Below are positions 288-10,863 of a stretch of 12,874 bases of DNA, piece after piece. Origin of the DNA: a virus (taxonomy: Duplodnaviria; Heunggongvirae; Uroviricota; Caudoviricetes). Position 1 is the first letter of the stretch; every line of letters starts with the position of its first letter. The stretch lies in IMG/VR virus record IMGVR_UViG_2541047170_000006. One strand, 5' to 3'. A program made the translations under genes and the position numbers. The notes under the pieces were generated by a model. It ran no database searches. It saw nothing but the letters and a program-made list of their open reading frames with translations, and had not been told where the DNA came from.

Positions 288-301
288 GGGTCCTTTCCGG
301 C
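288..301 (+). other. cosQ: cosQ-like element upstream of cosN (packaging termination signal)
   Basis: GGGTCCTTTCCGGC lies about 17-30 bp upstream of the cohesive-end 12-mer, where lambda carries cosQ; the surrounding 60 bp resembles the lambda right end as I recall it. Exact extent is uncertain. Confidence 0.4.
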
Positions 302-311
302 GATCCGACCG

Positions 312-335
312 GTTACGGGGCGGCGACCTCGCGGG
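312..335 (+). other. cosN: cosN, terminase nicking site containing the 12-nt cohesive-end sequence
   Basis: GGGCGGCGACCT at 318-329 is the lambda cohesive-end 12-mer, in the context GGTTACG / GGGCGGCGACCT / CGCGGG. Sequence to about 362 matches the lambda left end from memory. It sits about 190 bp upstream of the terminase small-subunit gene. Confidence 0.85.
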
Positions 336-364
336 TTTTCGCTATTTATGAAAATTTTCCGGGG

Positions 365-380
365 AAAATCATGTCGGTAC
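365..380 (+). repeat. R3-like repeat (AAAATCATGTCGGTAC)
   Basis: Core TCATGTCGG at 369-377, exactly 100 bp upstream of the same core in the R1-like copy (469-477). Confidence 0.55.
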
Positions 381-425
381 TTCTCGAACATAACTATTTG
401 TTTTTTCTAATATCGAATCCGTAAA

Positions 426-440
426 GGTCCGACATGAAAA
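426..440 (-). repeat. R2-like repeat, inverted orientation
   Basis: 426-439 (GGTCCGACATGAAA) is the perfect reverse complement of 467-480 (TTTCATGTCGGACC), a 14-bp inverted repeat with a 27-bp spacer. Confidence 0.55.
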
Positions 441-465
441 CGCCTGAAAAAGTCATTTTCGGGCA

Positions 466-480
466 CTTTCATGTCGGACC
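466..480 (+). repeat. R1-like repeat (CTTTCATGTCGGACC)
   Basis: Direct copy of the R3-like core and inverted partner of the R2-like copy; ends 24 bp before the Nu1 ATG. Confidence 0.55.
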
Positions 481-504
481 CTGTATTTGTTGTGAGACTG
501 TTTC

Positions 505-1024
505 ATGAAGGTTAATAAAAAGAAACTTGCCGAAATTTTCAACGTGGATCCGCGAACGATTGAACGCTGGCAGTCTCAGGGGCTCCCTTGCGTCTCCGGA
601 GGTGGTAAGGGCGTTGAATCTGTATTTGATACCGCCACGGCAATTCAGTGGTATGCGCAGAGGGAAGCTGATATCGAAAATGAAAAACTCCGTAAAGAGG
701 TTGAGGATTACAGGGCTGCCAGCGAGGCAGATCTCCAGCCTGGGACTATTGAGTACGAATGCCATCGACTTACGCGTGCGCAGGCTGACGCCCAGGAGCT
801 GAAGAATGCCAGAGACTCCGCAGAAGTGGTGGAAACCGCATTCTGTACTTTCGTGCTGTCACGGATCGCAGGTGAAATTGCCAGTATTCTCGACGGGATC
901 CCCCTGTCGGTGCAGCGGCGTTTTCCGGAACTGGAAAACCGACATGTTGATTTCCTGAAACGGGATATTATCAAAGCCATGAACAAAGCAGCCGCGCTGG
1001 ATGAACTGATACCGGGGTTGCTGA

Positions 1025-1050
<26 letters not shown>
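505..1050 (+). CDS. Nu1: Terminase small subunit (gpNu1-like)
   Basis: ORF of 181 aa, ATG at 505, stop at 1048-1050. From about residue 73 (…[14 protein letters not shown]… to …SEYIEQSG) it matches lambda gpNu1 as recalled. The N-terminal ~70 aa are homologous but clearly divergent ([22 protein letters not shown]…GGGKG, a winged-HTH-type DNA-binding domain). First gene after cos; overlaps A by 26 nt. Confidence 0.93.
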
Positions 1051-4731
<3,681 letters not shown>

Positions 4732-4751
<20 letters not shown>

Positions 4752-6051
4752 TCTCCCGCATATTGCCAGCATGGCTTTTAATGAGCCGCTGATGCTTGAA
4801 CCCGCCTATGCGCGGGTTTTCTTTTGTGCGCTTGCAGGCCAGCTTGGGATCAGCCGCCTGACGGATGCAGTATCCGGCGACAGCCTGACTGCCGGAGAGG
4901 CACCCGCGGCGCTGGCGTTATCCGGTGATGATGACGGACCACGACAGGCCCGGAGTTATCAGGTCATGAACGGCATCGCCGTGCTGCCGGTGTCCGGTAC
5001 GCTGGTCAGCCGGACGCGGGCGCTGCAGCCGTATTCGGGAATGACCGGTTACAACGGCATTATCGCCCGTCTGCAACAGGCTGCCAGCGATCCGATGGTG
5101 GACGGCATTCTGCTCGATATGGACACACCGGGCGGGATGGTGGCGGGAGCATTTGACTGTGCTGACATCATCGCCCGTGTGCGAGACATAAAACCGGTAT
5201 GGGCGCTGGCCAACGACATGAACTGCAGTGCAGGTCAGCTGCTTGCCAGCGCCGCCTCCCGGCGTCTGGTCACGCAGACCGCCCGGACAGGCTCCATCGG
5301 CGTCATGATGGCTCACAGTAATTACGGTGCTGCCCTGGAGAAACAGGGCGTGGAAATCACGCTGATTTACAGCGGCAGCCATAAGGTGGATGGCAACCCC
5401 TACAGCCATCTACCGGGTGATGTCCGGGAAACACTGCAGTCCCGGATGGATGCAACCCGCCGGATGTTTGCGCAGAAGGTGTCGGCATATACCGGCCTGT
5501 CCGTGCAGGCTGTGCTGGATACCGAGGCTGCAGTGTACAGCGGTCAGGAGGCCATTGATGCCGGACTGGCTGATGAACTTGTCAACAGCACCGATGCGAT
5601 CACCGTTATGCGTGATGCACTGGATGCACGTAAATCCCGTCTCTCAGGAGGGCGAATGACCAAAGAGACTCAATCAACAACTGTTTCAGCCACTGCTTCG
5701 CAGGCTGACGTTACTGGCGTGGTGCCAGCGACGGAGGGCGAAAACGCCAGCGCGGCGCAGCCGGACGTGAACGCGCAGATCACCGCTGCGGTTGCGGCAG
5801 AAAACAGCCGCATTATGGGGATCCTCAACTGTGAGGAGGCTCACGGACGCGAAGAACAGGCCCGCGTGCTGGCAGAAACCCCCGGTATGACCGTGGAAAC
5901 GGCCCGCCGCATTCTGGCCGCAGCACCACAGAGTGCACAGGCGCGCAGTGATACTGCGCTGGATCGTCTGATGCAGGGGGCACCGGCACCGCTGGCTGCA
6001 GGTAACCCGGCATCTGATGCCGTTAACGATTTGCTGAACACACCAGTGTAA
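4732..6051 (+). CDS. C: Prohead protease (gpC-like, ClpP/S49-type serine protease)
   Basis: GTG start at 4732 preceded by GGAGGAG (4721-4727); 439 aa (VTAELRNLPHIASMAFNEPLMLEPAYA…), matching lambda gpC in length and sequence as recalled. Overlaps the end of B by 20 nt. The 484-aa ORF from the upstream ATG at 4597 is rejected as the start. Confidence 0.9.
5446..6051 (+). CDS. Nu3: Scaffolding protein (gpNu3-like), nested in-frame in the 3' part of C
   Basis: In-frame ATG at 5446 (MDATRRMFAQKV…) shares reading frame and stop with C and gives 201 aa, exactly the lambda C/Nu3 nested arrangement. No strong SD is visible, so the call relies on homology to the lambda arrangement. Confidence 0.8.
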   Translation: MDATRRMFAQKVSAYTGLSVQAVLDTEAAVYSGQEAIDAGLADELVNSTDAITVMRDALDARKSRLSGGRMTKETQSTTVSATASQADVTGVVPATEGENASAAQPDVNAQITAAVAAENSRIMGILNCEEAHGREEQARVLAETPGMTVETARRILAAAPQSAQARSDTALDRLMQGAPAPLAAGNPASDAVNDLLNTPV

Positions 6052-7515: not shown

Positions 7516-7914
7516 ATGACGAAAGATGAACTGATTGCCCGTCTCCGCTCGCTGGGTGAACAACTGAACCGTGATGTCAGCCTGACGGGGACGAAAGAAG
7601 AACTGGCGCTCCGTGTGGCAGAGCTGGAAGAGGAGCTTGATGACACGGATGAAACTGCCGGTCAGGACACCCCTCTCAGCCGGGAAAATGTGCTGACCGG
7701 ACATGAAAATGAGGTGGGATCAGCGCAGCCGGATACCGTGATTCTGGATACGTCTGAACTGGTCACGGTCGTGGCACTGGTGAAGCTGCATACTGATGCA
7801 CTTCACGTCACGCGGGATGAACCTGTGGCATTTGTGCTGCCGGGAACGGCGTTTCGTGTCTCTGCCGGTGTGGCAGCCGAAATGACAGAGCGCGGCCTGG
7901 CCAGAATGCAATAA
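7516..7914 (+). CDS. FI: DNA packaging accessory protein (gpFI-like)
   Basis: 132 aa from ATG 7516, preceded by GGAGGAG (7506-7512); MTKDELIARLRSLGEQLNRDVSLTGTKEELALRVAELEEELDD… matches lambda gpFI as recalled. Confidence 0.93.
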   Translation: MTKDELIARLRSLGEQLNRDVSLTGTKEELALRVAELEEELDDTDETAGQDTPLSRENVLTGHENEVGSAQPDTVILDTSELVTVVALVKLHTDALHVTRDEPVAFVLPGTAFRVSAGVAAEMTERGLARMQ

Positions 7915-9268: not shown

Positions 9269-10009
9269 ATGCCAACACCAAATCCTCTGGCACCGGTGAA
9301 AGGGGCCGGGACCACACTGTGGGTTTATAACGGGAACGGCGACCCATATGCAAACCCGCTTTCAGACAATGACTGGTCGCGTCTGGCAAAGGTTAAAGAC
9401 CTGACGCCCGGCGAACTGACCGCTGAGTCCTATGACGACAGTTATCTCGATGATGAAGATGCGGACTGGGCCGCGACCGGACAGGGGCAGAAATCCGCTG
9501 GAGATACCAGCTTCACGCTGGCGTGGATGCCCGGAGAGCAGGGGCAGCAGGCGCTGCTGGCGTGGTTTAATGAAGGTGATACCCGTGCCTATAAAATCCG
9601 CTTCCCGAACGGCACGGTCGATGTGTTCCGCGGCTGGGTCAGCAGTATCGGTAAGGCGGTGACGGCGAAGGAAGTGATCACCCGCACGGTGAAAGTCACC
9701 AACGTGGGACGTCCGTCGATGGCAGAAGATCGCAGCACGGTAACAGCGGCAACCGGCATGACCGTGACGCCTGCCAGCACCTCGGTGGTGAAAGGGCAGA
9801 GCACGACGCTGACCGTGGCATTCCAGCCGGAAGGCGCAACCGACAAGAGCTTCCGTGCGGTGTCTGCGGATAAAACAAAAGCCACCGTGTCGGTCAGTGG
9901 TATGACCATCACCGTGAAAGGTGTTGCTGCAGGCAAGGTCAACATTCCGGTCGTATCCGGTAATGGTGAGTTTGCTGCGGTTGCAGAAATCAACGTCACC
10001 GCCAGTTAA
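9269..10009 (+). CDS. V: Major tail tube protein (gpV-like) with C-terminal Ig-like domain
   Basis: 246 aa from ATG 9269, preceded by GAGGA; [31 protein letters not shown]… matches lambda gpV as recalled. C-terminal ~85 aa ([54 protein letters not shown]…) has the Big_2/Ig-like signature. The upstream ATG at 9239 is rejected. Confidence 0.94.
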
Positions 10010-10447: not shown

Positions 10448-10863
10448 GTTTTGCCCTGAAACTGGCGCGCGAGATGGGGCGACCCGACTGGCGTGCCATG
10501 CTTGCCGGGATGTCATCCACGGAGTATGCCGACTGGCACCGCTTTTACAGTACCCATTATTTTCATGATGTTCTGCTGGATATGCACTTTTCCGGGCTGA
10601 CGTACACCGTGCTCAGCCTGTTTTTCAGCGATCCGGATATGCATCCGCTGGATTTCAGTCTGCTGAACCGGCGTGAGGCTGACGAAGAGCCTGAAGATGA
10701 TGTGCTGATGCAGAAAGCGGCAGGGCTTGCTGGAGGCGTTCGTTTTGGCCCGGACGGGAATGAAGTTATCCCCGCTTCCCCGGATGTGGCGGACATGACG
10801 GAGGATGACGTAATGCTGATGACAGTATCAGAAGGGATCGCAGGAGGAGTCCGGTATGGCTGA
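10025..10863 (+). CDS. T: Tail assembly chaperone G-T fusion made by programmed -1 ribosomal frameshift
   Basis: Slippery heptamer G_GGA_AAG at 10423-10429 in the G frame. The -1 frame is open from there to TGA at 10861-10863 (VFDGELSFALKLAREMGRPDWRAMLAGMSSTEYADWHRFY…), matching the lambda G/GT arrangement. Joined coordinates are 10025..10428 plus 10428..10863. Confidence 0.85.
10423..10429 (+). promoter_or_regulatory. -1 programmed ribosomal frameshift slippery site (GGGAAAG)
   Basis: X_XXY_YYZ heptamer in the zero frame of G, 16 nt before the G stop codon, with a long open -1 frame downstream. Confidence 0.85.

Follow-up and report, generated by a model that had tools for sequence, protein, structure and literature searches.

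What might a short sequence be doing that recurs, in both orientations, immediately upstream of a phage terminase gene? The question is raised by TCATGTCGG, exact copies of which are found at positions 369-377 (plus strand), 429-437 (minus strand) and 469-477 (plus strand), and nowhere else on either strand of the window, as we designate the whole stretch of 12,874 bp analysed here. With a chance expectation of 0.14 copies, and at least three copies in none of 200 dinucleotide-preserving shuffles, a chance origin of this triplet is ruled out. The two direct copies are spaced by exactly 100 bp. The inverted copy belongs to a longer repeat, since 426-439 (GGTCCGACATGAAA) and 467-480 are perfectly reverse-complementary, and this pairing extends into 25-nt arms (426-450 and 456-480) with 88% complementarity and 5 nt between them. 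The spacer separating the first two copies (381-425) has an A+T content of 73%, against 44% for the whole window. Core positions, inverted partner, 100-bp spacing and AT-rich spacer had all been given in the initial annotation of this DNA and were recovered exactly.

The location of the triplet provided the first clue to its nature. It starts 50 bp right of a sequence, GGGCGGCGACCT (318-329), an identical copy of which is annotated as the 12-base left cohesive end in both phage 21 and lambda DE3, and ends 25 bp before the ATG (505) of a small terminase gene, thus occupying cos bp 50-165 between cosN and terS, which is the location of cosB in lambda-like phages. A sensitive BLAST search with positions 363-504 found phage 21 at 86% identity, and the window could be aligned without gaps to the phage 21 cosB region from cos bp 1 to about bp 186, so that an offset of 317 converts cos bp to window coordinates. 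The binding features of the phage 21 records OL657228 and M81255 (R3 at cos bp 50-65; I1 at 72/74-86, the start at 72 being that of M81255; R2 at 107-122, oppositely oriented; R1 at 150-165/166; terS starting at 189) map onto the three copies and their AT-rich spacer, bearing in mind that the R boxes are labelled "putative" in M81255. Together with PMC4669245 and PMC9026076, these records supplied the box definitions used here. The resulting features of the window are as follows.

288-294, plus strand: cosQ (GGGTCCT), the subsite for termination of packaging, lying 30 bp to the left of the top-strand nick, by direct reading.
318-329, plus strand: cosN cohesive end GGGCGGCGACCT, by alignment; cos bp 1 is window position 318.
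335-366, no strand: I2, the AT-rich spacer between cosN and cosB (cos bp 18-49), the same as in lambda as far as about bp 45.
367-382, plus strand: predicted R3 box AATCATGTCGGTACTT, a TerS site (cos bp 50-65), colinear with the annotated R3 of phage 21.
391-403, minus strand: predicted I1, with the IHF core AAACAAATAGTTA, at the position of I1 in phage 21 (cos bp 74-86).
424-439, minus strand: predicted R2 box, TTTCATGTCGGACCTT in minus-strand reading (cos bp 107-122), identical to R2 of phage 21.
440-466, no strand: palindromic R2-R1 spacer (GCCTGAAAA / TTTTCGGGC), inverted with respect to phage 21.
467-482, plus strand: predicted R1 box TTTCATGTCGGACCCT, an accessory TerS site (cos bp 150-165), colinear with R1 of phage 21.
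505-1050, plus strand: terS, a homologue of Nu1/gene 1 (181 aa), with a full-length match to Pfam Phage_Nu1 (E = 5e-90).
1025-2950, plus strand: terL, a gpA homologue with Pfam GpA_ATPase and GpA_nuclease domains and 94-100% DNA identity to lambda A.

The cosQ subsite, described as a highly conserved 7-bp sequence (PMC4669245), is offset as in the 42,931-bp phage 21 record, where cosQ is annotated at 42902-42908. The I2 segment has been delimited at approximately bp 18-50 and contains a static bend (PMC4856287), and is placed at cos bp 30-44 by the annotation of M81255. Two small ORFs predicted in this area, 134-391 on the minus strand and 266-424 on the plus strand, were rejected as genes, having no Pfam match and spanning cosN. 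Among related loci, the 21-type cosB/TerS pair was observed joined to four cohesive ends differing at cos bp 7-12, where GGGCGG is followed by CGACCT (53 loci), AAGGCG (17 loci), CAGCGG (8 loci) or GAGCGT (2 loci), as illustrated by L036, L073, L074 and related IMG/VR loci; such differences in cohesive ends are common (PMC4669245).

The correspondence with phage 21 extends to individual bases. In this phage the boxes read AATCGTGTCGGTACTT (R3), TTTCATGTCGGACCTT (R2) and TTTCATGTCGGGCCTT (R1), and those of the window occupy the same positions in the same orientations, with R2 facing the opposite way to R3 and R1. No base differs in R2, and a single one of 16 does in each of R3 and R1. The sole difference in R3 falls at bp 54, where the G of phage 21 is replaced by an A, and it is because of this A that all three cores are identical in the window. 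From the start of the R3 core to the starts of the R2 and R1 cores, respectively, the window and phage 21 both measure 59 and 100 bp, and lambda 61 and 101 bp. The latter phage shares the same R3, I1, inverted R2 and R1 layout, with spacings within 1-2 bp, a related I1 and an extended R2-R1 palindrome, together with cosQ, cosN and an I2 that is identical up to cos bp 45, but its R boxes contain CGTTTCC instead of the CATGTCGG found in the window. The simple cosB of N15 has an R3 at the same distance from cosN and a Nu1-like TerS, but is limited to this single R3 and a remote rR2, without I1, R2 and R1 (PMC4669245), whereas the window has a full complex cosB. Four features that characterize the complex, lambda-type cosB were found, namely its position, three R sequences with R2 inverted, a predicted I1 between R3 and R2, and a TerS of the Nu1 family with an N-terminal winged-HTH domain. 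Based on these comparisons, the three occurrences of TCATGTCGG very probably represent boxes R3, R2 and R1 of cosB, at which packaging would be initiated, in a lambda-like prophage having the packaging specificity of phage 21. The initial annotation had already proposed a lambda-like cosB, a reading strengthened by the gap-free phage 21 alignment, the coincidence with annotated R3, I1, R2 and R1 features, and the Phage_Nu1 gene located downstream. The type of element is therefore a known one, a cosB of phage 21 specificity.

Scattering of the element through the genome, which the initial annotation had regarded as arguing against a specific role, was not observed. All three copies of the window fall in cosB; in the phage 21 genome (42.9 kb), TCATGTCGG is found at R2 and R1 only; and a prophage locus of E. 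coli O157:H7 (48.9 kb) contains the three cosB copies plus one elsewhere. Outside cosB, the window also contains eight matches to TCATGTCGG with one mismatch, at 939-947, 3107-3115, 5213-5221, 7698-7706, 7877-7885, 9753-9761, 9840-9848 and 10790-10798. All of them are on the minus strand, a bias that is probably an effect of coding-strand composition because all genes are on the plus strand. The near-copy at 939-947, which lies inside terS, was considered as an analogue of the N15 rR2 and rejected, since it belongs to lambda-derived sequence and is located 622 bp from the cohesive end.

The spacer between R3 and R2 had been proposed to lie in the position of the IHF-induced bend, and it indeed coincides with the annotated I1 of phage 21. 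The accompanying remark that no clean match to the IHF consensus WATCAANNNNTTR could be found is literally correct, but a core with one mismatch on the minus strand, AAACAAATAGTTA at 391-403, had been overlooked. One-mismatch matches to this consensus are not enriched in the window, with 4 found for 5.6 expected, and since they do not exceed chance the predicted I1 rests on position and homology rather than on motif score. The site also aligns with I1 of lambda (CATAACTATTTGTTTTT in the window, CATAACTTAATGTTTTT in lambda), and in a divergent lineage (L080) the changes found in the I1 core sit at N positions of the consensus.

The specificity of packaging can be examined from both sides, the DNA boxes and the protein that reads them. 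The N-terminal domain of the window TerS matches the winged-HTH DNA-binding domain of lambda gpNu1 (PDB 1J9I, E = 1e-23), as well as the chain of PDB entry 6HN7 that represents TerS. This domain (residues 1 to about 66) is of the 21 type, and the remainder of the protein is of the lambda type. All 12 residues of the recognition helix are identical to those of phage 21 gp1, whereas 5 of 12 differ in the lambda helix (SIRTIQNWQEQG). Cross-packaging between lambda and phage 21 is lower by a factor of more than 1000 than packaging of their own DNA, and the contacts and clashes that separate the two specificities have been attributed to R3 bp 56 and 59 and to TerS residues 20 and 24, the Glu24 of lambda TerS clashing with the G:C pair found at bp 56 in phage 21 (PMC4669245). 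At these four positions the window agrees with phage 21 throughout, with G at bp 56 (position 373) and G at bp 59 (position 376), where lambda has T and C, and with E and S at TerS residues 20 and 24, where lambda has Q and E. At the sequence level, both the predicted R3 and the TerS helix are thus of 21-type specificity. Within the otherwise lambda-identical stretch of TerS, a single substitution was also observed, Cys86 (EYECHRLT; codon 760-762), which is an Arg in both lambda (EYERHRLT) and phage 21 (DYERYRLT).

The association between boxes and helix was further documented by comparing related loci. Viral contigs were scanned with the N-terminal domain of TerS, which yielded 80 loci; together with phage 21, 4A7 and PhiR5_1, these represent 27 distinct cosB sequences. 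A similar scan of genome contigs produced nothing but an irrelevant match of 18 residues in a Planctomycetaceae MAG. Across the 27 sequences, variable columns account for 31% of R3, 31% of I1, 38% of R2 and 53% of R1, compared with 62-81% in the spacers within 383-504, and the least variable segment is the cosN-proximal region left of R3 (342-366; 24%). The R1 core CATGTCGG is invariant in these relatives. Every lineage having CATGTCGG boxes encodes the 21-type helix (the window, phage 21 and three other lineages), and in lambda SIRTIQNWQEQG is paired with CGTTTCC boxes. Escherichia phage PhiR5_1 (L089, PV340545.1) offers another combination upstream of its terS at 541, with boxes that are intermediate between those of lambda and phage 21 (GCATGTCAGTTCTT, GATGTCGTTTCTT and TCATGTCGTAAC) and a TerS recognition helix, DIRTIDRWQTQG, unlike that of either phage. 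PhiR5_1 may represent a further packaging specificity.

How the three boxes might be used can be deduced from the model established with lambda and phage 21, in which IHF bends I1, a TerS dimer binds R3 and R2, and TerS positions TerL for the nicking of cosN (PMC4669245, PMC9026076, PMC4856287). By analogy, IHF would bind the predicted I1 (391-403) and sharply bend the AT-rich DNA separating R3 from R2, and the dimer formed by the winged-HTH N-terminal domains of TerS would dock across this bend on R3 (367-382) and the inverted R2 (424-439), with R1 (467-482) providing accessory TerS binding. Bound TerS would then anchor TerL, which would nick cosN (318-329), some 50 bp further left, in a staggered manner, creating the 12-nt cohesive end and starting rightward packaging. 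These functional steps, as assigned to the predicted sites, rest on homology, and the source prophage may be defective, in which case cosB would be a relic there.

A different arrangement had been suggested in the initial annotation, with small-terminase dimers on R2/R1 and a single copy engaged at R3, which does not match the R3/R2 model. In its most explicit form, the inverted R2/R1 pair would be the primary symmetric site of the TerS HTH dimer and R3 would bind a separate, single domain. Such an arrangement would account for R2/R1 being the longest and best inverted repeat of the region (25-nt arms at 88%, perfect over 14 bp), with R2 and R1 more alike than either is to R3, and the presence of several TerS dimers per terminase (PMC4856287) means that R1 must contact another DNA-binding domain. 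Yet 41 bp, or about four helical turns, separate the start of the R2 core from that of the R1 core (cos bp 112 and 153), and scanning for the IHF motif detected no site between them; on unbent DNA, a compact winged-HTH dimer could by inference not span this distance. Studies of lambda and phage 21 likewise point to docking on R3 and R2 across the I1 bend, with R3 as the most critical box and R1 as an accessory one, and the deletion of both R2 and R1 in lambda can be suppressed by a missense change in Nu1 (PMC4669245, PMC9026076). A primary dimer on R2/R1 therefore has scarcely any probability, and docking on R3 and R2 remains the preferred reading.

The symmetry of the R2-R1 region nonetheless goes beyond the boxes, the whole R2-spacer-R1 unit (426-480) forming an extended palindrome of about 55 bp that includes both boxes and spacer around a 5-nt centre. 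When folded as RNA, positions 420-510 yield one long hairpin of -39.6 kcal/mol (z = -6.1). In phage 21 (L006, cos bp 107-166), lambda (L005, cos bp 109-165) and two further lineages, the spacer also pairs beyond the R boxes, and the equivalent extended palindromes fold with -33 to -36 kcal/mol (z = -6.7 to -9.5). The repeats might therefore be the stems of an RNA (or cruciform) hairpin rather than protein-binding boxes. Late transcripts from pR' cross cos into terS, where a 55-nt hairpin located about 25 nt upstream of the start codon could act as a terminator, an attenuator, or an element controlling mRNA stability or translation; furthermore, the inner stem (442-464) was flagged as terminator-like. 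However, a hairpin leaves R3 unexplained, this third copy being 60 bp upstream and without a complementary partner of its own, and it does not explain the covariation between boxes and TerS helix. Terminator-like structures are no more frequent than in shuffled sequences (2 versus 1.1), and the tail following the stem, ACTTTCATGT, is a poor T-run. In addition, PhiR5_1 keeps the boxes yet folds weakly (-15.3 kcal/mol, z = -2.4), and any inverted pair of binding sites gives an in silico hairpin by construction. A permissive Rfam search returned no family at gathering score, with only generic hairpins matching at 20-29 bits for cut-offs of 60-95, and the candidate of a known RNA family was rejected; so was that of a promoter, operator or terminator, as the promoter/terminator scan did not exceed shuffle expectation. 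Taken together, a unit acting mainly as a hairpin is very improbable. In our view the hairpin arises as a by-product of two TerS binding sites in inverted orientation, and the chance that it has a second role as well is small.

The spacer itself was found to differ in orientation between the window and phage 21. The 33 bp lying between the cores of R2 and R1 (438-470) were compared with cos bp 120-152 of phage 21 (L006/L091), giving 30 of 33 matches in reverse complement, against 23 of 33 when read directly. Of the nine positions that are not palindromic, phage 21 agrees with the inverted form at seven and with the direct form at none. This pattern suggests that the spacer was inverted by recombination between the perfect 14-bp inverted arms of R2 and R1. 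In L080, the spacer looks like a mixture of both orientation states. As the spacer is palindromic in lambda, phage 21 and the window, and seems to have been flipped without loss of function, one may ask whether selection acts on R2-spacer-R1 as a whole palindrome, about 55 bp long. The cosB literature cited here states no function for this symmetry, and we consider such selection unlikely. If it did occur, it would imply a symmetric role beyond the R3/R2 docking model, for which a cruciform or hairpin, a second TerS dimer bound across a bend encoded by the spacer, or an RNA hairpin controlling terS on the late transcript would be candidates.

At a larger scale, the region is a natural mosaic (318-3300), in which the sequence of cosQ, cosN and I2 matches lambda perfectly as far as cos bp 45. 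Next come cosB and TerS residues 1 to about 66, which are 21-like (363 to about 700; 78-96% identity), and from about 715 on, the sequence is lambda-like through terL (94-100%), with a breakpoint near 700-715. As this 21-like segment is flanked by lambda-like sequences, cosB and the domain that reads it appear to travel as one cassette of ca. 340 bp. Phage 21 itself does not have this organization, TerS's C-terminal half and terL being lambda-type in the window. A similar assembly is known from the laboratory hybrid lambda-21 hy51, in which cosB of phage 21 and much of gene 1 were placed in a lambda backbone (PMC4669245, PMC9026076), and which likewise combines a 21-type cosB and TerS DNA-binding domain with a lambda-type TerS C-terminus and terL. 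In contrast to this hybrid, the cassette of the window is a natural one that hundreds of E. coli genomes carry; its identity to phage 21 is only 78-96%, and its left side is bordered by lambda-type sequence up to cos bp 45, which implies two natural breakpoints.

The distribution of this cosB allele is broad in E. coli. It was detected in about 550 of 5,426 complete genomes, many of them O157:H7, always in the chromosome and once per prophage, and the plaque-isolated phage IdasGreatGrand carries it with 97-98% identity. This viable carrier and the conservation of the boxes among relatives lend indirect support to the R boxes being bound by TerS and needed for cosN nicking and packaging. No complete RefSeq E. 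coli genome contains the exact window, the best matches being O157:H7 prophages, which share 98.6% identity with it from end to end. Many O157:H7 strains have the cosB segment (355-520) with 100% identity, so that the window is regarded as a further mosaic variant of this prophage family.

Decades of genetic and structural work have gone into the R3-I1-R2-R1 layout of cosB and the specificities of lambda and phage 21, and GenBank already had these boxes annotated for phage 21, so that the identification of this element has in itself little discovery value. The putative inversion of the R2-R1 spacer would indicate that its orientation is neutral. The prophage can now be annotated as having a predicted 21-type packaging specificity, which bears on cross-packaging by co-resident prophages or helper phages in O157:H7, and its ca. 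340-bp cassette provides a natural example of a packaging site and its reader domain moving jointly.
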